NCBI GenBank assembly: GCA_029838195.1
Contig: JALGVJ010000009.1
Span: forward strand, 1 to 64,000
Direction: 5' to 3'
Length of the DNA: 64,000 nucleotides
Source of the DNA: Promethearchaeota archaeon
Lineage (GTDB): Archaea > Asgardarchaeota > Lokiarchaeia > Sigyniarchaeales > SOKP01
This document shows positions 1-11,630 of this stretch, in pieces. The translations under genes and the position numbers were made by a program. Every line of letters starts with the position of its first letter. Position 1 is the stretch's first letter. The notes below the pieces were generated by a model that was given only the letters and a program-made list of their open reading frames with translations, did no database searches and was not told the origin of the DNA.

Positions 1-176
1 AATAATCCCGATCTCTTATCTCAGATCATCGTTTCCCGCCAACTTCAAGCCGATTTTATATATAAGAACCTTACTTTAATGGAGCGTGCCAGCTTACTGG
101 AACGGGGGGTTATAGCATGATATAATAAAAAAAGGGGGAATTTTATAATTTTTCATTCATTTATGAAATTACCCGG
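1..176 (+). mobile_element. Possible right end of an insertion sequence (IS1380-like terminus) interrupting the GTPase gene
   Basis: Open frame 1..120 (NNPDLL...ERGVIA*) enters from the window edge. Then ...TTATGAAATTACCCGG (161-176; CCGGGTAATTTCATAA on the minus strand) sits exactly where the GTPase similarity stops. Transposase and other end not visible. Confidence 0.3.
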
Positions 177-698
177 ATTCTCTTCTAACTTTAAAATCTC
201 GGTTATGATTTGAGTAAAGTATTCCATTGATTCATCATACCGATCCGGCGCTTGTACATCAATTACGTAGATGAGTAAATCTAAGCCGAAGAAATATTGA
301 TCGGGGGATTCTAAATATTCCCTTCGATGGTCTACTTGGCCTCCAAAATCCCAAATGTGAATCCGAGCATTTTCCGTCTTTATTTCTTGTCTATTTACAC
401 CTCGAGTGGGTTGTAATGAAGCAAGTTTTTCTATCCCTAATTTTCCGCCAAATTTGGATAAAATAGCAGTTTTTCCTGCGTTATTGAGCCCTAATACAAT
501 GATTTTCTGATCTTTTAATTCCTCCGCAACTGATTTTCGTTTAATTCTCTGAATGATAAGGCTAATCGTGATTGCTTTTTTTAATTTCTCTTCAAATTCG
601 GGGTCATTTTTTTTTATGAGGTTAATTAAAATCTTTTTCTTTTTGGAACGAGAAATTTTCTTAAAAGGATTTTCTTGATCTATTTCAGCAAATGACAA
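153..698 (-). pseudogene. Arf/Rag-like small GTPase, C-terminally truncated
   Basis: G1 GLNNAGKT, G2 PTRG, G3 WDFGGQ present. The ORF ends (EENPGNFINE*) before any G4/G5 motif. Confidence 0.7.
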
Positions 699-873: not shown

Positions 874-1605
874 TTATTTTATTTTCAGTTTTTCTAATAA
901 GGAATCAAACTCGCTGAAATCAAAAGGTTTTAATATAAACCCATCCACTTGCGTTTCTTTTAATTTTTTCATAACTTCTGAATGTGGAATTGCGGTGATA
1001 AAGTAGATCGGGGTATCAATTGATCTTCTTTTTAATATCTTTCCCAATTCAGAGCCATCCATGTCCGGCAATAGAATATCAATTAAAATCAGTTTTGAAT
1101 TGTACTTTTCAATCTCTTCTAAACATTTTTTAGCTGTATTAACTCCTTTGCATCGCATGCCTTTTGTTTCAAAAAAATCTTTTAAGAGTAAGATGGTAGA
1201 GGCATTATCATCAACGATAAGAATGTCATAATCTTGGACTTGCGTTTCGGAACCAATGAAAATTTCATCAATTTTTCTCTCTAATTCCTTACTTTGATCA
1301 TGTATTTCTTTTATTCTAATTAATATATTAGGATCTATGTTTTCAGAATAATTCTCCAAGAGAATATGGGAGAGCCCATTTATAATGGTCAATGGTTCTT
1401 TTAATTCATGAGATACCTTATTAATATTCTTAAAAAGGGAGATCTTCAATGTATTTCCAATATAAAATTCTACAGCTTTACGGATGAATCTCGAAATGGA
1501 GGAAAAATCATTTTTATCAGCAAATTTTTGCCACTTTTTTTTAGTTTCTTCCGATACTAATAAAGTTATTCTTTCATTTTTCTTATCTTTTTTCATTTTA
1601 ATCAC
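874..1605 (-). CDS. RHH (CopG-like) - HisKA - receiver protein without HATPase domain
   Basis: N-terminal RITLLVSEETKKKW...SISRFIRKAV (ribbon-helix-helix pattern); H-box SHELKEPLTIING; REC with ILIVDD, LIDILLPDMDG, FITA, LKPF. Alternative ATG at 1596. Confidence 0.8.
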   Translation of the reverse strand: MIKMKKDKKNERITLLVSEETKKKWQKFADKNDFSSISRFIRKAVEFYIGNTLKISLFKNINKVSHELKEPLTIINGLSHILLENYSENIDPNILIRIKEIHDQSKELERKIDEIFIGSETQVQDYDILIVDDNASTILLLKDFFETKGMRCKGVNTAKKCLEEIEKYNSKLILIDILLPDMDGSELGKILKRRSIDTPIYFITAIPHSEVMKKLKETQVDGFILKPFDFSEFDSLLEKLKIK

Positions 1606-1968: not shown

Positions 1969-2616
1969 ATGATGGAAGCAATTTACAACTCCTTTAAAGA
2001 CGAATTAATTAGATATCCCTTTTTAGTTATTGTTGGAAAGTATGACCAAATTTTAGGTCCACGAGCTTTATATTCTTCTATTGATATAAGAGATGAAGAA
2101 TTTATAAGAAATTTGTTGCGAGATGCATTGAATACTAAAAATAAATTTGTAATATTGGATTTTCAAAAGTTTTATGCACAAATATGTAAGATTGAAGTAG
2201 AAGATAAATCAGCTCGTGGAGGTAAACAATTATATGCGATCATTCTATTACGCCACGAAGAATATCCACTCCTTCCTATTCTTCATTTTAAAAAAATTGA
2301 GATGATGTTTCATCGCCTTGGAGCCGAACGCATACTTTCGGATGATTTAAATGGATTTAAGGAATTCATAGATCAAGTGGAAGAAATCTACATAAAAAAG
2401 GATGCTATTCTACCTTTAGAATCAATTAACCTTCAAATCCGAAGTGGCGTTAATACGATTCAAGGTTTTTGCGAACTCATTTTAGAAGAGAAACGAAAAC
2501 ATGGCAAAATTTCAGAAGAGACCGTGTTATCTTATGTTGAGTTAATGTTAGATTCTTGTAAAGATATCATTAAAGCATTAGAAGGAGATGATGTCAGCAA
2601 TTCAATTAAAAAATAA
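1969..2616 (+). CDS. uDENN/longin-like domain fused to His-less pseudo-HisKA (DHp) domain
   Basis: YDQILGPRAL and EDKSARGGKQLYAIILL resemble FLCN/SMCR8/C9orf72-type longin motifs. INLQIRSGVNTIQGFCELILE aligns with MSHELRTPLNAILGFSELLLE of the neighbouring kinase, with H>L. Confidence 0.6.
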   Translation: MMEAIYNSFKDELIRYPFLVIVGKYDQILGPRALYSSIDIRDEEFIRNLLRDALNTKNKFVILDFQKFYAQICKIEVEDKSARGGKQLYAIILLRHEEYPLLPILHFKKIEMMFHRLGAERILSDDLNGFKEFIDQVEEIYIKKDAILPLESINLQIRSGVNTIQGFCELILEEKRKHGKISEETVLSYVELMLDSCKDIIKALEGDDVSNSIKK

Positions 2617-2718: not shown

Positions 2719-3111
2719 ATGGAAAAAATCTTCATTTTAAGTAATGATGATATCACATGTAGAATTTATAGATTACTCTTGCATTTAGAAGGAGGTTATA
2801 CTATTATTGGTTATGAAAAAGATATAGCTAAGGCATTGAATTATCTTTCCACGATCGAAAGTGCTCCTGATATTATCTTTATTGATTTTAAAATGTCAAA
2901 TAGAGACGCCCTTTCATTACTTCAAAGTATAACTCAAAAATATCCGGATTTGAAAATCATGTGGATTAATCCTGATAAGAAAATTAAGGACCTTGCTTCA
3001 GAATTTAAATCATTATATTTAATCGAAGAACTGTATAAAAATCAAGATTTAATATTTTTCATAAGGGATGCTAGTAAAATGGACAAAAATGGATTAAAAA
3101 TTTCATCATGA
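2719..3111 (+). CDS. Atypical stand-alone receiver (CheY-like) domain
   Basis: PDIIFIDFKM retains the phospho-Asp; acidic pocket (ILSNDD) and KP motif are degenerate. Confidence 0.7.
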   Translation: MEKIFILSNDDITCRIYRLLLHLEGGYTIIGYEKDIAKALNYLSTIESAPDIIFIDFKMSNRDALSLLQSITQKYPDLKIMWINPDKKIKDLASEFKSLYLIEELYKNQDLIFFIRDASKMDKNGLKISS

Positions 3112-3243: not shown

Positions 3244-5817
3244 GTGATTTATATAATGTCCTTGTTGAGAAAACTTGATAAAGAAAAAATATGGCGAGAT
3301 TTTAATTTAAAAATATTATTAATTGGAGAAAATAAGGGAGAGGTTGAAAATGTAAGGACATTATTAAAGAAAGTAGAAGACCTAAATTTCTCCATGACTC
3401 ATGTCTGTTCTTTAAATGAAGCAAGAACTCAATTAGATGAGAAAAATTTTGATATTATTCTTTTAGATTTAGGTCTAGAATCAGAAAAAGGACTTGAATT
3501 AATTAATAAAACAATCAAGTTAAAAAAAAACATTCCCATTATAGTTTTGGCAAATTTTTATGATGAAAATTTAGAACGTGCAGCAATAAAATTAGGTGTT
3601 CAGGATTATTTGATTAAGGAGCAATTAAATAGTTTCTATTTAATAAAATCAATTCATCATGGTATTGATAGAGAGAGATTAAAAAAACAAAATGAAATTT
3701 TAACAAAAAAAATTCAAGAAAACCAGCAAAAATTAAATTCTATAGTTCAGCAGAATGCTGATGGGATTCTAATAGTTGATAATAAAGGATATATTCACTT
3801 TATCAATTCTACAGCGGAATATTTATTATCAAAAGAAAAGAAGAATTGGATTGGAAAAAGATTTAATTATTCTATAGAAAAGGGAAGAACTACGGAAATT
3901 CATATCATTCATGATGATGAAACTATCACTGTTGCTGAGATTAAAGCGGTTGAATTACTATGGGAAGGAGAATTAATGAATTTAATAACACTTCGAGACA
4001 TTACAGAAATTAGAAAAACTGTACATGAAGTAAAAGAATTAGCTAAAATTTCTTCAAAATGTCCTTTCCCCATTATCAGAGTCAAACATGACAAAATTAT
4101 TTATTTAAATGATGCCGCAAAATTATGTTTTAAAGTCAATGTAGGGGAAAAAATACCTGTTTACTTTAAAGAGGGTATAAGAAAGGTAAGAGCAAGTGGC
4201 TCTATTGAAAAAATCGAAATCGAATACGATGGGCAATATTTTTTATTAATAATAAATCCCGACGATGATAAAGAAACCCTTATTATCTATGCCATGAATA
4301 TAACGGAAAAAGTATTGACCACAATTGCCTTAAAAGAATCAGAAATTAAATACCGTAGTTTAATTGAAAACTTAGATTCGGGGATTAGTTGCGTTAATAC
4401 AAACAACGTTTATACTGTCGTAAATGAAAAGGCCGCAGGGATATTGGGGGGAAAACCGGAAGATTTTATCGGTAAATCGATTTTTGAAGTACTACCTAAA
4501 GATTTAGCGGAACAAGAAAAGAGTATAAATGAAGAGATTTTTAGTAAGGGAAAGGGAATAATTTATGAAGAAATTATTAATTTAACTGAAGGAGAAAAAG
4601 TGTTTTTCATTAATAAACAACCTTTATTAGATGCTGAAGGAAAAATTGTTGGTGTACAGAATATATCCGTAGACATATCGGAAATCAAGAAATCCGAAAA
4701 AGAAGTTAAAAAGTTGGAGAAAACACTACAAGAAATGAATGCTCTAATTGAGCACGCTCCATTGGCAATATTTTTAATGGAAAAGAAAGGAAAAATCTTA
4801 CGAGCAAATGAAGCCGCTAAAGAACTCTTCGAGATGAATGATGAGATTCTCAATTACCATGTTCATGAGTTATTTGATAAGGAGTCGAAAGAGAAAATTG
4901 CAAAACACTATGATACCGATATATTTGATCTTCTTACACCGAATACGGTAGAAGCAGTAATTACTACGACTAAAGGGAAAAAGGTAGATGTAGAGATATA
5001 TTCTACAATCTTGAAAATTGCCGATAATTTAATCATCCAATCCTTCATATCCGATATTTCTGAACGGAAAGCTTTTGAACGGCATAGAGAAAAACTTTTA
5101 GATGAATTAATTACCTCCTTAGAATTCAAATCTAAATTTCTTGCGACAATGTCTCATGAATTACGTACCCCGTTGAATGCCATTTTAGGGTTCTCTGAAC
5201 TCTTATTAGAAGGTTCTTATGGAGCACTTAATAGAGAGCAAGAAGAGTACTTAAAAGACATTAGTTCAGCAGGAACTCACTTGTTAAATTTAATCAATTC
5301 CATTTTAGACATCTCAAAAATAGACGCCGGAAAATTTGAATTAAATATAGAACAAGTAAATTTATGCCGTATAATAAAAGAATCAGAAAATCTTGTACGT
5401 CCCTTGTATAGTAAGAAACATCTGAAGTTTAATATCGAGGGATTTCCTAAAGGTGCTCTTCTTTTCGTGGACCCCGTACGATTCAAACAAATTCTTTTTA
5501 ATTTACTCTCTAATGCTATAAAATTTACTCCAGAAGGGTCTATTACCCTAAAAGGAATTGAAAAAAAAGAGGTATGGGAATTTCGTGTTTCTGATACCGG
5601 TATAGGCATTGCTGAAAAAAATTTTAAAAAAATCTTTAAAGAATTTAGTCGTGTTGAAAATGAAAAAACAAGAAACATCGCGGGAGCAGGATTGGGCTTA
5701 GCGCTCACGAAAAGACTAATTCAACTTCATGGAGGAGAAATTTGGTTCGAAAGTGAATTAAATAGAGGCACGACTTTTTATTTTACCATCCCAAAAAGGA
5801 TGGGAAATGATGATTAA
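3244..5817 (+). CDS. Cytoplasmic hybrid histidine kinase (REC-PAS x4-HisKA-HATPase)
   Basis: DIILLDLGL receiver; PAS repeats ending RDITE/DISE; SHELRTPLNAILGF; NLLSNAIKFT, DTGIGI, GAGLGL; no TM segment. Confidence 0.95.
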   Translation: MIYIMSLLRKLDKEKIWRDFNLKILLIGENKGEVENVRTLLKKVEDLNFSMTHVCSLNEARTQLDEKNFDIILLDLGLESEKGLELINKTIKLKKNIPIIVLANFYDENLERAAIKLGVQDYLIKEQLNSFYLIKSIHHGIDRERLKKQNEILTKKIQENQQKLNSIVQQNADGILIVDNKGYIHFINSTAEYLLSKEKKNWIGKRFNYSIEKGRTTEIHIIHDDETITVAEIKAVELLWEGELMNLITLRDITEIRKTVHEVKELAKISSKCPFPIIRVKHDKIIYLNDAAKLCFKVNVGEKIPVYFKEGIRKVRASGSIEKIEIEYDGQYFLLIINPDDDKETLIIYAMNITEKVLTTIALKESEIKYRSLIENLDSGISCVNTNNVYTVVNEKAAGILGGKPEDFIGKSIFEVLPKDLAEQEKSINEEIFSKGKGIIYEEIINLTEGEKVFFINKQPLLDAEGKIVGVQNISVDISEIKKSEKEVKKLEKTLQEMNALIEHAPLAIFLMEKKGKILRANEAAKELFEMNDEILNYHVHELFDKESKEKIAKHYDTDIFDLLTPNTVEAVITTTKGKKVDVEIYSTILKIADNLIIQSFISDISERKAFERHREKLLDELITSLEFKSKFLATMSHELRTPLNAILGFSELLLEGSYGALNREQEEYLKDISSAGTHLLNLINSILDISKIDAGKFELNIEQVNLCRIIKESENLVRPLYSKKHLKFNIEGFPKGALLFVDPVRFKQILFNLLSNAIKFTPEGSITLKGIEKKEVWEFRVSDTGIGIAEKNFKKIFKEFSRVENEKTRNIAGAGLGLALTKRLIQLHGGEIWFESELNRGTTFYFTIPKRMGNDD

Positions 5818-5867: not shown

Positions 5868-7874
5868 ATGGAGAAATATCAAAATTCTCACCAGCTTCAT
5901 GAAGCAGTAGAATTCTTATCGAAAAATTTAGACGAAATTGTATTAATTTTAGATAAGAATTTTATTATTGAATTTTATAATAATGGAAAACACGGGAAAG
6001 TTTTAGGATGGACGAGTAATAATTTAATTGGTACTTCCATTTTCGCTTTAATTCGAGAATTTGAAAATGCCCATAAAAATGAGAAAAAATTAAAAATAAG
6101 TTTGAATGAGGAATCCATTTCTCTGGTTCTTAAATTACAAGACAAAAAGGAAGACATTTTTACTTTAAATTTAAATGGAATTTCGCTCATGGTAAATAAA
6201 AACGAAAAAAAAGTATTGTTGATTGGCAAAATCATTCAAATAAATAAATTTAAAATTAATGAAATAAATCACCTTGAAAATGTTGAGAAACATTGGAACC
6301 AACAAATAAGAAAAACATTAGAACGAGAATTAAATAAAATGCATGTAGCTTTCGATAATGCTAAAGATCTCATGTTGATTTTAAATAGAAATGGAAAAAT
6401 TATAAATGTTAATGAAAAAGGGAAGGAAATTTTAGGATATGCAGGAGACCATCTTTTACAATTAAATCTAATGAGCCTAATCTCTCCAGAAAATAGTGAT
6501 TTGCTTAAAAAGAGTTTAGAGAATACGATAAATAATGGTACTCATGTGTTTGAAATTCCTCTCATTGATAGATATAAGAAGATTCATTTTTTTGAGATGC
6601 GCACTCTTCTCTTTTATATTAATCAAGAATTATTTATTTTAATGATAGGGAAAGATATTACAAGACAGTTTGAAGAATTATTGGAAATTAAAGAATCTGA
6701 ACTTAAATATCGCTCCATTTTAGAAAATATTAAAGAAGGGTATTATGAAATCGATTTAGATGGAAATTTTACTTTTTCAAATGATTTTCTCTTAAAGATA
6801 CTTCATTGTACAAAACAACAATTAAAAACCCAGAATATTTTTGATCTGTGTGATGATTCTCATAAAGTTTTCTTGAAAAATGCATTAGACTATGTAAAAT
6901 CGAAAAAAAGCCATTTAAAAAGCGTCCAAATTCAAGTGAACTTAATCAACGGAGCAAAAATTTTCTTAGAGCTGTCCATTGATTTGAAAATGGATGATAA
7001 TGAAAAAGTAATTGGATACCACGGCTTAATGAGAGATATAACAGAGCAGAAAAAAGCGGAAATTTTAGAAAAAAAATTCAAAGAAGAATTAGAAAAAGAA
7101 GTTGAATTACGCACAAAAGAACTTAATCAAGCTTTAGAGTTACAACAATATTTTCTAGATGAATTGGTAAAATCCTCTCAATTTAAAATGGAATTCTTAG
7201 CATCCATGTCTCATGATCTCAGAACCCCTTTAAATGCTATAATTGGATTTACCGATTTATTATTAGAACAGAGTTATGGAAAGTTAAATAAAGAACAATT
7301 AGAATTTTTAAAAGACATTAAATTTTCGGCCATGCATCAATTGGATATGATAAATAATATCTTAGATATAGCAAAAATTGAATCCGGGAAAACGACATTG
7401 AATTTAAGCTCGTTTTCTTTTAATAAGTTCATCAATCAAATGATCTCTAACTTAAAACCTCTCTGTGATGAAAAAAAATTATTTATTAAAGTAGAAGGAT
7501 TAAATAAGGAAGTGATAATTTTAGCAGATCCCATCAAATTTAAAGAAATTTTTTATAACCTTCTTAGCAATGCCATTAAATTTACTTTGAAGGGAGGAAT
7601 TACCATTATTTTTGAAGAAACTAATGATGAATGGGTTTTTAATGTAAAAGATACAGGTATTGGTATTGCCAAGGAAGATTATCCTAAAATTTTTAAAGAA
7701 TTTGAAAGAGGAAGTAATCCTTTGGTAAATTCTATTGAAGGTACAGGTCTGGGACTTTCTATAACAAAGCGGCTCGTTAACTTACACGGGGGTACTATTT
7801 CATTCAAGAGTAAAGTTGGCGAAGGAACGACTTTTACATTTACCATTCCCAAACCACCTCATAAAAAGCATTAA
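5868..7874 (+). CDS. Cytoplasmic PAS histidine kinase
   Basis: PAS repeats (KDITR, RDITE); SHDLRTPLNAIIGF; NLLSNAIKFT, DTGIGI, GTGLGL. Confidence 0.95.
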   Translation: MEKYQNSHQLHEAVEFLSKNLDEIVLILDKNFIIEFYNNGKHGKVLGWTSNNLIGTSIFALIREFENAHKNEKKLKISLNEESISLVLKLQDKKEDIFTLNLNGISLMVNKNEKKVLLIGKIIQINKFKINEINHLENVEKHWNQQIRKTLERELNKMHVAFDNAKDLMLILNRNGKIINVNEKGKEILGYAGDHLLQLNLMSLISPENSDLLKKSLENTINNGTHVFEIPLIDRYKKIHFFEMRTLLFYINQELFILMIGKDITRQFEELLEIKESELKYRSILENIKEGYYEIDLDGNFTFSNDFLLKILHCTKQQLKTQNIFDLCDDSHKVFLKNALDYVKSKKSHLKSVQIQVNLINGAKIFLELSIDLKMDDNEKVIGYHGLMRDITEQKKAEILEKKFKEELEKEVELRTKELNQALELQQYFLDELVKSSQFKMEFLASMSHDLRTPLNAIIGFTDLLLEQSYGKLNKEQLEFLKDIKFSAMHQLDMINNILDIAKIESGKTTLNLSSFSFNKFINQMISNLKPLCDEKKLFIKVEGLNKEVIILADPIKFKEIFYNLLSNAIKFTLKGGITIIFEETNDEWVFNVKDTGIGIAKEDYPKIFKEFERGSNPLVNSIEGTGLGLSITKRLVNLHGGTISFKSKVGEGTTFTFTIPKPPHKKH

Positions 7875-8101
7875 AAATCAGAAAATTTTCTATCCTCTAT
7901 TTAGCAAGTCTAGTCATGTAATGCTATACATTTCGTCCAACTTATAAAAAGGGCGAATTTAACATTACTTCTTATCTTTAGATTTACTTAAATTTAAATA
8001 GAAAAAATGGAAAGACTTAAGAAGTAACTACTTTTTATTAATATTAATTTCTTCTGTATAAGGCCGATATATCAATTCTGTGGAAAAAAAGGGTCAATTT
8101 A

Positions 8102-8733
8102 ATGACAAGTCGTAAAATTATAATGATTGGCCCTTCTGGGGAGGGAAAAACAACTATAAAGCATGTTTTTTTGAAAAAGCCAATCCACTTACTCTCTTGA
8201 AAAGCTTTTTTAATCCTACCCGGAGAATAGATACTTCCCTATATTCTTTTTTTAACCACATAATTAATATTTTCGATTTAGCAGATCAAAAAAATGAGAG
8301 CGGGTTTATTAAAGAAAAACGAGGTATTCAAGGAATCAGATACAATCTTTATCATCCATAATGTCCAAACTTCCTTAGAGAACATAATAAAATTTCTAAT
8401 ATATTTGATTAAAAAGCAAGAATTAAATAAAAATTTCTCCGATTGAAGAGGACTCCTTAAAACAGGAATTAAACATTACTTTAACTCTTGATTTATCAAA
8501 ACACAATAATAAAAGGGATACATGCCATGAGCTAAACTTACAAGAAACTAAGTTTGATTATTATATTTCAAGACTGGAACCATTAGGATTCATTAAATTC
8601 AAGAAACAAGATAATAATAAATTCTATTTTACGAAAAGAGGAGAATATTTTAGAAAAGGACGCGAAGAAGGGAAAAACCCCATTCTTCTCGAAACAGAAA
8701 AGAAAGATTTTGAGTTCTTGTATTCTTTTTTAA
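8102..8733 (+). pseudogene. Decayed Rag-like GTPase-wHTH gene
   Basis: ATG 8102 MTSRKIIMIGPSGEGKTTIKHVF, frameshift in a T-run, then EKANPLTLLKSFFNPTRR...IFDLADQ, second frameshift to EVFKESDTIF, stop. Later ELNLQETKFDYYISRLEPLGFIK...FTKRGEYF matches the wHTH of 8785..10317. Confidence 0.8.
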
Positions 8734-8784
8734 ATTTTAAAAAAATTTCAATAAGTATATGAATAAGAGATTATTGAAGAAAAT

Positions 8785-10317
8785 TCAAGTTAAATAATTT
8801 AATTGCAAGTCTTTAACTTTTTTGACTAAGTAAACTAATTCTTCATGATTTTCGTTTGTAATTGCTTTCATTAAATTTACTTTAATTTCTTTTATCTTTT
8901 CTAAAAGGAGTTCCATTTTTAACTTGATTTCATTCGATATATCATCTAATTCAGTATAAATCTTTTTTGCTTGTTTGATATCACACGTTTCCAAATTCGA
9001 TACCATGTGTTCATAGGTTTCATTTAATTTTAGCAACCATTCCCGCCCATGTTGATTAATTTCATCAAAATTTTCAAGAGAATGACTTTCCTTGAATTGG
9101 TCAAATTCTTCAGCATATATTTCAAAAAGATTCAAAAAGAACTCTTTTATTTTATTTTCTACGGATTTTAAATGAATATTGGGGTTTGTAAAAAGGGTAA
9201 TTGTATATTCACTGAAGCTGAAAATTTGCATTTTTAAATTCGAGCCCTTTAAATTAAATCCGGAAAGATCTTTGATGTTAACCTCTTTCGAAAATTTTTC
9301 TAAAGCACTAATGAACATTGGAATTAAATCAACATCAAAATCGGGTTTATTTTCAAAAAACACGTTATCATCAGACAAAAAAGATTTTAAAGCACCATCA
9401 TGGATTTCTGTGGTAAGAATCGTTATGCCATCCTTGTTTGCTATAAAATAACCAACAAAAGGAGGGATGACTTTTTCTTCAATTTCTAAGGTACTAACGC
9501 CTTCTTCTTTAGTCTTAATGAAAGATTTTAATGAAAATTCATTGATGATTCCTTTAAAATAGGTTTTCCCTTTATCTGATAACGTGATAATTTTCTCTTT
9601 TTGATCTCCAATTAAAGAAATGAATCCTAAATCTTTTAAAAATTCTAAAATTTCCTGTAATTTTTCTTTCGTTAAATTAAACCTATATTGTAATTCTCTT
9701 ATTGAAACAGCTAATTCTTGATCTACGTGATATAAGATTTCAATGGCTATTTTAAGTAAATTAAAATCAGCCTTTTCCGGAGATATTTCTTCCGTAACAC
9801 AGTGTTTTAAAATCTCAATAAAAATAGAAAATGTCTGAGTTAAATATTCCTTTTTTATACTAGTAAATGCCAATTTTACTTGCTGTTCATTTCTAATAGC
9901 ATGATTTACTTCTAATCTGAGTTGTTCCATTCTTTTCTTATCAATTAAATCAATTTTATGCATTAATAGAAAGATTATGGCGTGCGGAGATAATTTATTT
10001 CTAATTTGAATGATCTTTTTAATGAATTCTATAATCTCTCTGATATCTGTAGTTTTAGCATCAAAAACTACCATCATTACTTCAGTGTTCTGAAAAACTT
10101 GCTTATCTTCAGTTTCAAGCCATCTCTTATTTTCTTGCCCCGCAAGATCAAAAATTCCAACGTCATCTTTTAATCTTAAAATTAAGGATTCTATCCCATA
10201 AGTGGGTTTTAATGCGTGTTTCAATAATCTGACGGAATTTTCTCCTTCAAAAAATACTTTTCGTAGCGTAGTTTTTCCAGCTTCAGGGGGTCCTACAATA
10301 ACTATTTTTTTACCCAT
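8785..10317 (-). CDS. Rag/Gtr-like GTPase - winged HTH - longin-like domain - coiled coil
   Basis: GPPEAGKT, PTYG, DLAGQ, HKID, TSI; wHTH ELQYRFNLTKEKLQEILEFLKDLGFI...LSDKG; longin-like GYFIANKDG...DLIPMFISALEKFSKEV. Confidence 0.85.
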   Translation of the reverse strand: MGKKIVIVGPPEAGKTTLRKVFFEGENSVRLLKHALKPTYGIESLILRLKDDVGIFDLAGQENKRWLETEDKQVFQNTEVMMVVFDAKTTDIREIIEFIKKIIQIRNKLSPHAIIFLLMHKIDLIDKKRMEQLRLEVNHAIRNEQQVKLAFTSIKKEYLTQTFSIFIEILKHCVTEEISPEKADFNLLKIAIEILYHVDQELAVSIRELQYRFNLTKEKLQEILEFLKDLGFISLIGDQKEKIITLSDKGKTYFKGIINEFSLKSFIKTKEEGVSTLEIEEKVIPPFVGYFIANKDGITILTTEIHDGALKSFLSDDNVFFENKPDFDVDLIPMFISALEKFSKEVNIKDLSGFNLKGSNLKMQIFSFSEYTITLFTNPNIHLKSVENKIKEFFLNLFEIYAEEFDQFKESHSLENFDEINQHGREWLLKLNETYEHMVSNLETCDIKQAKKIYTELDDISNEIKLKMELLLEKIKEIKVNLMKAITNENHEELVYLVKKVKDLQLNYLT

Positions 10318-10337: not shown

Positions 10338-11630
10338 TTAATTATATATCGCATTAATTGTTAATTGTATTTTTCCTGCTAAATCTAATAATTCATTTGC
10401 ATTTAAAGCATCTGAAACGCAGATTAGATTTTTTAAATCATATTTAGAAATATTTAAATCATACATTATAATATTCAAGTTTTTTTTCCCGGAAATGATG
10501 AGATGTGAGATTTCATCATTATCTGTCATTTCTTTAAAGGTCTGATTTAATTGAATAATTAATTTATGTGAATGGTTTATTAAAGAAAGAGGAAAATCTG
10601 GAGTCATGGTTTGAATTACAATATTATTAAATTGATTAGTAATGAAACACATGACTTTTGGAAAGTCTTCAATGATATTATCAATAGAATCTTTTAAAGA
10701 AGCAGTCTGAATGGAGAAGCTGCTTAAGATTTCATAGAAAGAATTATAAAGTAAATATATTAAGTAGGGATAAATGCTTGTAAAATAAATTTTTATTTTA
10801 AAAAGACTTTTAATTTCTTTATATATCGATTTTAACTCTTGTTCACGAGATTCTTTATTAATTAAATCGATTTTATGAAAAAATAGAATTAATTTCGTTT
10901 TTAGATTTAATTTATCTATGATAGATTGAATGGTTTCTAGTTCTTTTATAACATCATATTTAATTGCCATCCAAGTTGGATAATCAACAATATAGATAAT
11001 GACATCAGCATTTTCAAACGCTTTTATCTGTTCTTCTGCATCATGTAATAGATAATTTAACTCTTGACCCGCAGAATCAAATACCCCTAATTCAAGATCG
11101 AACCAAGAATGAACAGATGGAATTAATCCACGGGTTGGTTCTAAAGGATCAGATAGTAATTTTTGAGGTGGCCATCCTTCAAATATTATTTTTGTGATGC
11201 TAGTTTTTCCTGTTCCAGCCCGTCCGAGAAGTAAAATTTTTTTAGATGAGGGTTTTGGTAAAATTATTTCGGCATTTTGTAAAAAAAAAGTTTTCCTCTC
11301 TTCTCCGGAGAGTTGAAATAAATTTTTAGCAAATTTTAAGAAATGTTCTTTAATTTTAAATAGATTTGGTTTTTCTTTTTCATGAAGCATTAATAATACT
11401 ATTTCATAACCAAAATCTGGCACGCGGGTTTTATCGCAATAAGAGAGGATAATTTTATTTTCATAACTAATTTCAATTAATTCTTCATCTTTTTTTACTT
11501 GTTCATAAGAATGAGTCATATAGATTTTATTTAACAACGCTAGATCAACATTAAATGTTCTTGGATACTGAAGTTCTAATACAGCCCCAATTTTAGAGTC
11601 CCAATTAAAAAGAGCAATGCCGCTTGACAT
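10338..11630 (-). CDS. Longin/uDENN-like - Rag/Gtr-like GTPase - roadblock protein
   Basis: N-terminal FNWDSKIGAVLELQYP; GRAGTGKT, PTRG, DSAGQ, HKID, TSIY; C-terminal roadblock-like domain. Confidence 0.85.
   Translation of the reverse strand: MSSGIALFNWDSKIGAVLELQYPRTFNVDLALLNKIYMTHSYEQVKKDEELIEISYENKIILSYCDKTRVPDFGYEIVLLMLHEKEKPNLFKIKEHFLKFAKNLFQLSGEERKTFFLQNAEIILPKPSSKKILLLGRAGTGKTSITKIIFEGWPPQKLLSDPLEPTRGLIPSVHSWFDLELGVFDSAGQELNYLLHDAEEQIKAFENADVIIYIVDYPTWMAIKYDVIKELETIQSIIDKLNLKTKLILFFHKIDLINKESREQELKSIYKEIKSLFKIKIYFTSIYPYLIYLLYNSFYEILSSFSIQTASLKDSIDNIIEDFPKVMCFITNQFNNIVIQTMTPDFPLSLINHSHKLIIQLNQTFKEMTDNDEISHLIISGKKNLNIIMYDLNISKYDLKNLICVSDALNANELLDLAGKIQLTINAIYN

Follow-up and report, generated by a model that had tools for sequence, protein, structure and literature searches.

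A longin protein with a histidine-less kinase hairpin, encoded beside Rag-like GTPases and histidine kinases in a Lokiarchaeial genome

The window analysed here comprises the first 64,000 nucleotides of contig JALGVJ010000009.1, from a Promethearchaeota archaeon belonging to the Lokiarchaeia. Close to its beginning lies a gene (P0001) whose product, a protein of 215 amino acids (aa), joins two domains: (i) an N-terminal longin domain of the NPRL2/FLCN class; and (ii) a C-terminal helical hairpin homologous to HisKA, the dimerization and histidine phosphotransfer (DHp) domain of histidine kinases, which lacks the phospho-accepting histidine. This longin gene heads a same-strand run made up of a weak receiver, a kinase with receiver (REC) and PAS domains, and a PAS kinase; beyond the kinases there are three Rag-like GTPases and another receiver, up to 13.3 kb. 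The coordinates of the main features are collected in Table 1.

Table 1. Genes, domains and motifs at the longin locus (positions in the window; + and -, strands)
Feature	Position	Strand	Basis and remarks
RHH-HisKA-REC protein (His present), no ATPase domain	874..1605	-	Divergent from the longin gene; Pfam
Longin / pseudo-DHp gene (P0001)	1969..2616	+	Open reading frame and translation; 215 aa
Longin domain, NPRL2/FLCN class	2014..2397	+	Residues 16-143; beta-beta-alpha-beta-beta-beta-alpha-alpha; AlphaFold2, Foldseek, VIA-align
GP motif Y25-D26-Q-I-L-G30-P31, beta1-beta2 loop	2041..2061	+	Conservation; aromatic-Asp pair ahead
D79-K-S-A-R83-G84, candidate arginine finger, beta4-beta5 loop	2203..2220	+	Motif parallel to FLCN
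Pseudo-DHp helical hairpin homologous to HisKA	2398..2583	+	Residues 144-205; helices 144-178 and 183-205
Leu155 codon, phospho-His position	2431..2433	+	Profile alignments, all in agreement
Divergent stand-alone receiver, 130 aa	2719..3111	+	Pfam Response_reg, 28.8 bits vs cut-off of 30.2
REC-PAS-PAS-PAS-HisKA-HATPase_c hybrid kinase	3244..5817	+	Pfam; conserved cluster member
PAS-HisKA-HATPase_c kinase	5868..7874	+	MSHDLRTPLN H-box; HisKA from iterative genome search; orthologues in loci L001-L003
Pseudogene of ~295-aa RagA-type GTPase with winged helix	about 8093..8756	+	tblastn with intact orthologues
510-aa Rag-like GTPase, then winged helix, long C-terminal region and predicted coiled-coil tail	8785..10317	-	Gtr1_RagA, 66 bits; weak HTH_45
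430-aa Rag-like GTPase paralogue	10338..11630	-	Gtr1_RagA, 79 bits; conserved cluster member

The gene, its family and its two domains

An earlier note made from the DNA letters (hereafter, the original prediction) had described the product as a longin domain fused to a His-less DHp and as a possible adaptor between kinases and GTPases. The reading frame (1969-2616, forward strand) is open and translates as quoted there, within a surrounding stretch of 28% G+C, and all the quoted strings can be found in it: YDQILGP (residues 25-31), DKSARGGKQLY (79-89) and INLQIRSGVNTIQGFCELILE (153-173), together with the H-box string MSHELRTPLNAILGFSELLLE of the neighbouring kinase (3244-5817). The true start of the gene may be the second methionine, at 1972.

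There are 295 detectable homologues of the protein, about 212-230 aa long, the best 120 of which share 59-87% identity with it. Wherever the source supplies a name for them, it is "hypothetical protein", and their hosts are Promethearchaeota/Lokiarchaeia; among the representatives, NCBI puts the label Hodarchaeota on one (45% identical) and Bathyarchaeota on another. When 1.8 billion cluster representatives were searched exhaustively with HMMER, only 27 of them turned out to represent this family, which is thus a narrow one. A feature-based search of a protein atlas led back to the cluster of the family itself, plus a weak pointer to HisKA at 0.87. The near-invariant or fully invariant columns of a 31-sequence alignment correspond to K24, Y25, D26, G30, P31, D79, A82, R83, G84, R158 and N162-F167.

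The N-terminal domain is a longin of the NPRL2/FLCN/C9orf72 class, with a GP motif and a conserved arginine in an FLCN-like D..ARG loop. An AlphaFold2 model built on the family alignment (mean predicted local distance difference test, pLDDT, of 81) places a helix at residues 2-15 and then, over residues 19-142, the succession strand-strand-helix-strand-strand-strand-helix-helix, which is the order of elements of a longin fold. When this model was compared with the Protein Data Bank (PDB) by means of Foldseek, as the original prediction had proposed, the highest ranks went to GATOR1 and FLCN chains (E 5e-5 to 2e-4), in company with 8yqg, the structure of a Lokiarchaeial longin. Re-alignment with VIA-align resulted in a Z of 13.4 and a root-mean-square deviation (rmsd) of 2.7 A over 131 residues against GATOR1 chains from NPRL2-holding entries, a Z of 12.3 against 8yqg and a Z of 11.7 against FLCN in its active GTPase-activating protein (GAP) complex (8dhb); for generic longins (sigma-adaptins, VAMP7, Sec22, DENN proteins), Z was 8-10. 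An independent shape search of the ESM Atlas retrieved NPRL2, Npr2p and C9orf72, as well as a cluster from Heimdallarchaeia in which part of the labels read Folliculin. Taken together, the order of elements, both structural alignments and the Atlas matches bear out the longin call of the original prediction. At the sequence level, the Pfam family Folliculin (PF11704) matches 31 out of 31 aligned members, each of them under the gathering score (best E 3.8e-5), and no match to Pfam NPR2 was reported for the 215-aa protein.

Two motifs bring this domain closer to the longins with GAP function. The first one is the GP motif, which is located at the start of the second longin strand and is reported to be specific to the GAP longins C9orf72, SMCR8, FLCN and NPRL2 (PMC12290439, Traffic 2025). 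In the family, D26 and G30 are invariant and P31 is nearly so, even in relatives at 27-40% identity, and in the AlphaFold2 model G30-P31 open the strand 30-36. The LGP of NPRL2, checked against the PDB chain sequence, has its glycine and proline at G20-P21; the resulting offset of 10 equals the start of the VIA-align alignment (model residue 16 to chain residue 6) and, in consequence, the GP register agrees with that of NPRL2. Besides, Y25-D26 are placed ahead of the GP exactly like W33-D34, essential in C9orf72, ahead of its G38-P39 (PMC12290439 numbering).

The second motif is that of the arginine. D79, A82, R83 and G84 are invariant in the 31 Lokiarchaeial members, and D79-K-S-A-R83-G84 parallels D160-S-L-A-R164-G of human FLCN, verified on the PDB chain sequence. 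Catalytic arginine fingers of the longin loop are known in FLCN (R164), NPRL2 (R78) and SMCR8 (R147), and Arg83 is a candidate for the same role. Some Asgard longins of the FLCN/SMCR8 type do have both a GP motif and an arginine finger (PMC12290439). Judging by these motifs, one single chain combines C9orf72-type elements (aromatic-Asp pair, GP) and an FLCN/SMCR8-type one (the arginine), a combination that suits a homodimer.

The C-terminal domain is a His-less HisKA/DHp hairpin. Modelled in isolation, it has a pLDDT of 89.5. When a profile of the hairpins of 31 close members was compared with the nine HisKA domains of this genome using hhalign, the probability was 74% (P 2.9e-5), and when 22 diverse hairpins were compared with 23 Asgard HisKA domains, it rose to 95.3% (P 2.2e-8, score 41.8), in an alignment of 54 columns that spans both helices. 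A column-shuffled null gave 10.1 +/- 2.2 with a maximum of 19.5 and, since none of 200 shuffles equalled the real score, the likeness to HisKA is not due to chance. Other searches point in the same direction: (i) the best match of the hairpin profile among PDB sequences was a 60-residue kinase DHp (7n0e_A, E 0.027); (ii) Pfam HisKA (PF00512) matched 14 of the 22 hairpins at E < 1, with 13.2 bits, under the cut-off; (iii) the top non-self matches of an own-genome HMM search with the hairpin alone were kinase H-boxes (E 0.015-0.8); and (iv) the top Foldseek rows for the isolated hairpin were mostly the DHp domains of HK853, SrrB, an EnvZ chimera and KinB (rmsd 1.4-2.4 A), those of HK853 being the best (1.4-1.8 A), with no row under E 0.3, i.e., non-significant. 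The protein has no HATPase_c match, and the chain ends 10 residues past the hairpin.

In the hairpin, the H-box register R-x-x-[LIV]-N-x-I-x-G-F-x-E-L is preserved and the position of the phospho-His is occupied by Leu155. Hence, the His-less DHp with a leucine at that site, as originally predicted, is confirmed by the profile alignments, the model and the column itself. Over 140 family hairpins, this column contains L (95), M (32), F (5), H (4), I (2) and V (1), so that leucine or methionine stands in place of histidine in 127 of them. The four proteins that retain the histidine are P0129 (SHHVR), P0132 (SHKIR), P0108 and P0140; the strings of the first two are close to the canonical SHELR of a kinase H-box, which settles the descent of the hairpin from a real H-box. 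Both P0129 and P0132 (~33% identity) are devoid of the arginine in the longin loop, and P0129 (locus L004, 1911-2528) belongs to a run of receiver and hybrid-kinase genes, on a 6.4-kb contig that carries no GTPase. His-bearing/Arg-lacking and His-lacking/Arg-bearing forms thus seem to exist, but the split is not a clean one, given that P0108, a member of the main clade, has a histidine in the column while its longin loop still reads ARG.

The gene cluster and its distribution

Out of the nine HisKA domains in the genome, three lie less than 6 kb away from the longin gene. Similarly, the genome totals of 21 receiver and 37 Gtr1_RagA-type matches include four and five, respectively, within the first 13 kb of the contig. 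The protein encoded at 874-1605 matches Response_reg (75.6 bits), HisKA (25.4 bits) and, weakly, RHH_1; it has a 43%-identical orthologue in locus L002 and could be a DNA-binding phosphotransfer protein. In the stand-alone receiver (2719-3111), the acceptor Asp is aligned, with no conservation at the Thr/Ser and Lys positions typical of receivers, and no close orthologue of it was found in the related loci. It may be a pseudo-receiver, and it occupies the usual slot of a Rag GTPase of ~295 aa. As to the hybrid kinase, its orthologues (43-48% identity) adjoin the longin gene in L001, L002 and L003.

The same gene set recurs in 20 other genomes and in several metagenomic contigs. The commonest order is longin / pseudo-DHp gene, Rag of ~295 aa, two PAS kinases and, on the opposite strand, Rag paralogues of ~512 and ~438 aa. 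According to our own calls of open reading frames, the ~295-aa Rag lies at most 46 nucleotides downstream of the longin gene, on the same strand, in 10 of the 20 genomes; it is likewise directly downstream beside a 36%-identical relative (L007). The ~295-aa protein matches Gtr1_RagA above the Pfam cut-off and has a C-terminal winged helix (HTH_45, 27.5 bits). Full-length orthologues of the 510-aa Rag are found near the longin gene in L001, L005, L007 and L009-L012, the two families sharing contigs, and the 430-aa Rag is 54% identical to the ~440-aa gene that holds this position of the cluster in L009. If only the taxonomic family is considered, all 19 genomes with a longin gene also have Rag510-family genes (E 1e-40), as do four of the 20 without it, in two of which they are full length. 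The longin-Rag-kinase cluster has the pattern of a module whose genes are acquired or lost together.

Regarding distribution, at a threshold of E 1e-5 members of the family turn up in 23 of the 201 genomes sampled from the phylum, and those 23 belong to one order of Lokiarchaeia: the genome studied here, 20 of the 40 others of the same taxonomic family, and two of the three from a sister family in the order. No member was found in the remaining 158 genomes of the sample. Every occurrence among the sampled genomes is one full-length copy.

In the genome studied here, the ~295-aa Rag is broken. The tblastn pieces at about 8093-8756 (E down to 3e-13) are spread over three reading frames and contain in-frame stops, the P-loop being still readable, and no intact orthologue was found anywhere in this genome. 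A further case was observed in L016 (13835-15345, genome G141), where an orthologue of the ~510-aa Rag is split in two open reading frames with several stops; since this Rag is also broken, it follows that the Rag genes of the cluster decay repeatedly. An open reading frame for an Arf/Rag-like GTPase (153-698, reverse strand) looks truncated, as it encodes 181 aa vs 415 aa in its 65%-identical orthologue of L001.

Proposed function and competing explanations

We give roughly even odds (about 0.5) to the following reading: the longin and the HisKA-derived hairpin make up a signalling protein which, as a dimer, acts on the co-encoded Rags and is coupled to the phosphorelay. In such a protein, the hairpin would pair two chains into a four-helix bundle, thereby placing the longins side by side as in FLCN-FNIP2 or NPRL2-NPRL3. 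A second family copy that might act as partner longin subunit was not found in the genome search, where the family is single copy; hence, a homodimer is likely. The longin dimer would then have the Rag-like GTPases of the cluster as its targets, its most likely role being that of a GAP that uses Arg83, and the highly conserved exposed face of the pseudo-DHp would dock a receiver or a kinase of the adjoining PAS-kinase phosphorelay. In this way, the phosphorylation state could be coupled to the nucleotide state of the Rags, much as DivL reads DivK~P. The adaptor interpretation of the original prediction is therefore partly supported: both domain calls stand, and the kinase-GTPase link, plausible from gene context, has strong, if indirect, backing in the conserved cluster and in the pattern of presence/absence with Rag-like GTPases and PAS kinases.

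Regarding its N-terminal half, the protein is like the eukaryotic NPRL2 (GATOR1, RagA/B), FLCN (with FNIP2, RagC/D), SMCR8 and C9orf72 (Arf) in its longin fold and in the GP of the beta1-beta2 loop, and like FLCN in the arginine of the D..ARG loop; its genomic association with Gtr1/RagA-family GTPases recalls the targets of NPRL2 and FLCN. Unlike the eukaryotic longin GAPs, it carries a kinase hairpin instead of a DENN or an NPRL2 C-terminal domain, is likely to form a homodimer, and unites in a single chain an arginine like that of SMCR8/FLCN and an aromatic-Asp pair like that of C9orf72. Its C-terminal half is a two-helix hairpin like the HisKA (PF00512) DHp of, for instance, HK853, with the H-box register kept; unlike HisKA kinases, it has a glycine in place of the proline of helix 1 and an N-terminal longin in place of the sensor and ATPase domains.

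Some known systems help to picture such an arrangement. Spo0B and ChpT are DHp-only phosphotransferases without a working ATPase domain, a trait that they have in common with the longin / pseudo-DHp protein. DivL of Caulobacter is a pseudokinase with a tyrosine at the histidine site, which binds DivK~P through its DHp; unlike the protein described here, it retains its catalytic and ATP-binding (CA) domain and its PAS sensors, and there is no sequence relationship between the two beyond HisKA. By analogy with DivL, a kinase-derived DHp without a phospho-acceptor could read the state of a receiver, rather than phosphorylate it. In bacteria, MglB is a homodimeric module of the Roadblock/longin superfamily that regulates a small Ras-like GTPase encoded nearby (MglA), as pictured here, but it is a roadblock rather than a longin, and it is not known to have an arginine finger of this type or a kinase-derived domain.

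A number of observations weigh against the proposal of a longin GAP working on the Rags of the cluster. The score of PF11704 on the window's protein is 17.4 bits against a cut-off of 23.3, its match spans residues 63-114, and profile searches of PDB sequences (whole-family and longin profiles) returned chance rows for CheY, MIF and S3Ae, with no FLCN or NPRL2; owing to these sub-threshold and missing matches, the kinship to FLCN/NPRL2 is structural and motif-level instead of a clean sequence-family membership. The correspondence of Arg83 to the FLCN arginine is based on motif and loop position, not on residue superposition. Most longin domains are parts of guanine nucleotide exchange factors (GEFs) or scaffolds rather than GAPs. 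The co-occurrence counts overstate independence, because the compared genomes are close kin. Finally, the longin gene is intact while the ~295-aa Rag is broken, so either the pairing between both is not obligatory or another Rag paralogue serves. Being intact and 87% identical to its nearest relative, the longin gene is still under constraint, and its product perhaps serves the remaining Rag paralogues or the kinases. A complex of two chains of the protein with GTP, Mg and the GTPase domain of the 510-aa Rag was also predicted; run without controls, it scored 0.28 (mark, 0.32) and speaks neither for nor against the proposal.

The survival of the longin gene beside a broken ~295-aa Rag also bears on a different explanation, in which the protein modulates kinases: the pseudo-DHp would form mixed bundles with, or cap, the DHp of a neighbouring kinase or of the RHH-HisKA-REC protein, or else sequester receivers, while the longin would sense a Rag-like GTPase in one nucleotide state. 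Signal flow would then run from the GTPase to the phosphorelay, and the arginine would bind rather than catalyse. The residues of helix 1 around the lost histidine (R158, N162-F167) are invariant, beyond what plain dimerization needs, and the His-retaining, Arg-lacking relatives sit in pure kinase/receiver runs. In L002/L019, L004 and L020, kinases flank the longin gene directly without an adjoining Rag, which, together with the survival of the gene here, somewhat favours this explanation. In turn, the GP motif and the arginine are reported to be specific to GAP longins (PMC12290439) and are invariant in the main clade, and the tightest gene linkage is to a Rag, not to a kinase. All in all, a modulator of kinases is the main competing explanation, and we consider it rather improbable.

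A further explanation, given that most longins are not GAPs, is that the longin dimer would be a platform or exchange factor for the Rags, as in TRAPP, Mon1-Ccz1, DENN proteins or Ragulator, with the hairpin merely dimerizing and having no link to the phosphorelay. The longins of DENN-family, Fuzzy-Inturned and MON1-CCZ1 GEFs do match the model well (Z 8-10), and fusion to a longin or roadblock domain is common among Asgard GTPases (PMC10933270). Nonetheless, the GEF longins fall 2-4 Z units short of NPRL2 and FLCN, the GP and arginine motifs are conserved, and two PAS kinases persist in the cluster, which is not what a hairpin unrelated to a phosphorelay would lead one to expect; a GEF or scaffold role is, in our opinion, distinctly unlikely. 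As for a superficial resemblance, i.e., an ordinary alpha/beta domain followed by a coiled-coil tail and unrelated to GAP longins or kinases, every Pfam match is indeed under its gathering cut-off and the isolated hairpin has Foldseek E values > 0.3. But the profile-profile match (P 2.2e-8) stood up to its shuffle control, the His-bearing relatives read SH[HK][VI]R, two structure libraries agree on NPRL2/FLCN/C9orf72, and conservation is strong, all of which makes this explanation scarcely credible.

The joining of a eukaryote-type longin to two-component parts is, as a general class, already published. Liu et al. (bioRxiv 10.1101/2020.10.19.343400) report many NPRL2-like longins fused to two-component domains in Asgard archaea and propose that growth regulation in these organisms is centred on two-component systems with eukaryote-like regulators. 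The 215-aa protein belongs to the class that they describe, being an Asgard protein in which an NPRL2-like longin is joined to a two-component domain; the phylum, the longin class, the GP and arginine motifs and the notion of eukaryote-type regulators feeding into two-component signalling are likewise shared with what Liu et al. and PMC12290439 describe. In the accessible text of these two sources, the fused part is not described as a His-less DHp, nor is a cluster with Rag-like GTPases, although the exact architecture may already be drawn in Fig. 5c of Liu et al. In strain MK-D1, genes for longins or roadblocks do not, as a rule, share an operon with small GTPase genes (PMC10933270). A full-text literature search on Asgard archaea, Rag GTPases and histidine kinases gave nothing beyond the cited papers. 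What is new here is, apparently, the His-less nature of the fused DHp, the existence of His-bearing/Arg-lacking relatives and the conserved longin-Rag-kinase cluster.

The interest of this pairing lies in the evolution of growth control. Eukaryotic growth decisions run through Rag GTPases, for which the longin GAPs GATOR1 and folliculin provide the off switch. GAP-type longins and Rag-like GTPases are both present in Asgard archaea, and the longin / pseudo-DHp family supplies a concrete pairing of the two: in many genomes a RagA-type GTPase gene comes directly after the longin gene, which is always accompanied by PAS histidine kinases. Which GTPase the Asgard longins of FLCN/SMCR8 type serve is a question already asked (PMC12290439). 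Two further questions are opened: (i) whether the longin GAP mechanism is older than eukaryotes; and (ii) whether the earliest connections of Rag signalling were with bacterial-style phosphorelays, along the general lines suggested by Liu et al. Both are approachable with small soluble proteins. A bolder reading, which we regard as doubtful albeit conceivable, is that the cluster represents a prokaryotic forerunner of the Rag-GATOR1/FLCN nutrient axis: a homodimeric longin GAP, with the C9orf72-type aromatic-Asp pair and the FLCN/SMCR8-type arginine still in one chain as before duplication into heterodimers, would work on winged-helix Rags and be switched by a phosphorelay through a His-less DHp that reads the phosphorylation state of a receiver, and the His-bearing/Arg-lacking relatives would stand for the change from phosphotransfer protein to GTPase regulator.

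Other architectures and minor observations

In a listing of sequencing runs, small shares are given for four DNA metagenome runs, and no RNA run is listed. In the AT-rich spacer 5' of the gene, inverted repeats are unremarkable. A pair of AACGTT palindromes is present at 1937-1956, 14 bp apart and 13-32 nucleotides 5' of the start codon; it is unique within the window and did not appear in shuffles, and it was upstream of none of the 22 orthologues examined.

A word-index search found no longer fused forms of the protein, a weak negative given that the same search missed the fusions with PAS described next. Two representatives, of 388-391 aa, have an N-terminal PAS domain and then another weak helix that resembles an H-box, again His-less, before the longin-hairpin unit. 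Forms of this kind are P0134 (L005, 2549-3724) and a P0136-like gene (L021, 683-1849), both divergent from an adjoining orthologue (472-475 aa) of the 510-aa Rag; one PAS-fused relative so placed is 29% identical. The PAS-fused gene of L005 also adjoins a gene with Cas_NE0113 / Cas_APE2256 Pfam matches.

A different arrangement is that of P0141, a 556-aa protein from a 4-kb metagenomic contig, which has six tandem HisKA-like hairpins after a Gly/Ala-rich N-terminus, with a phenylalanine at every phospho-His position (SF[KN][LI]R). Lastly, there is a second, distant longin family with open reading frames of ~350 aa (e.g., G049:C5:49999-50235 and G177:C30:30275-30514), in which the longin profile is matched over its first 80 positions (E 1e-4 to 1e-6); this second family is present in most genomes of the taxonomic family, including those without the longin / pseudo-DHp gene.

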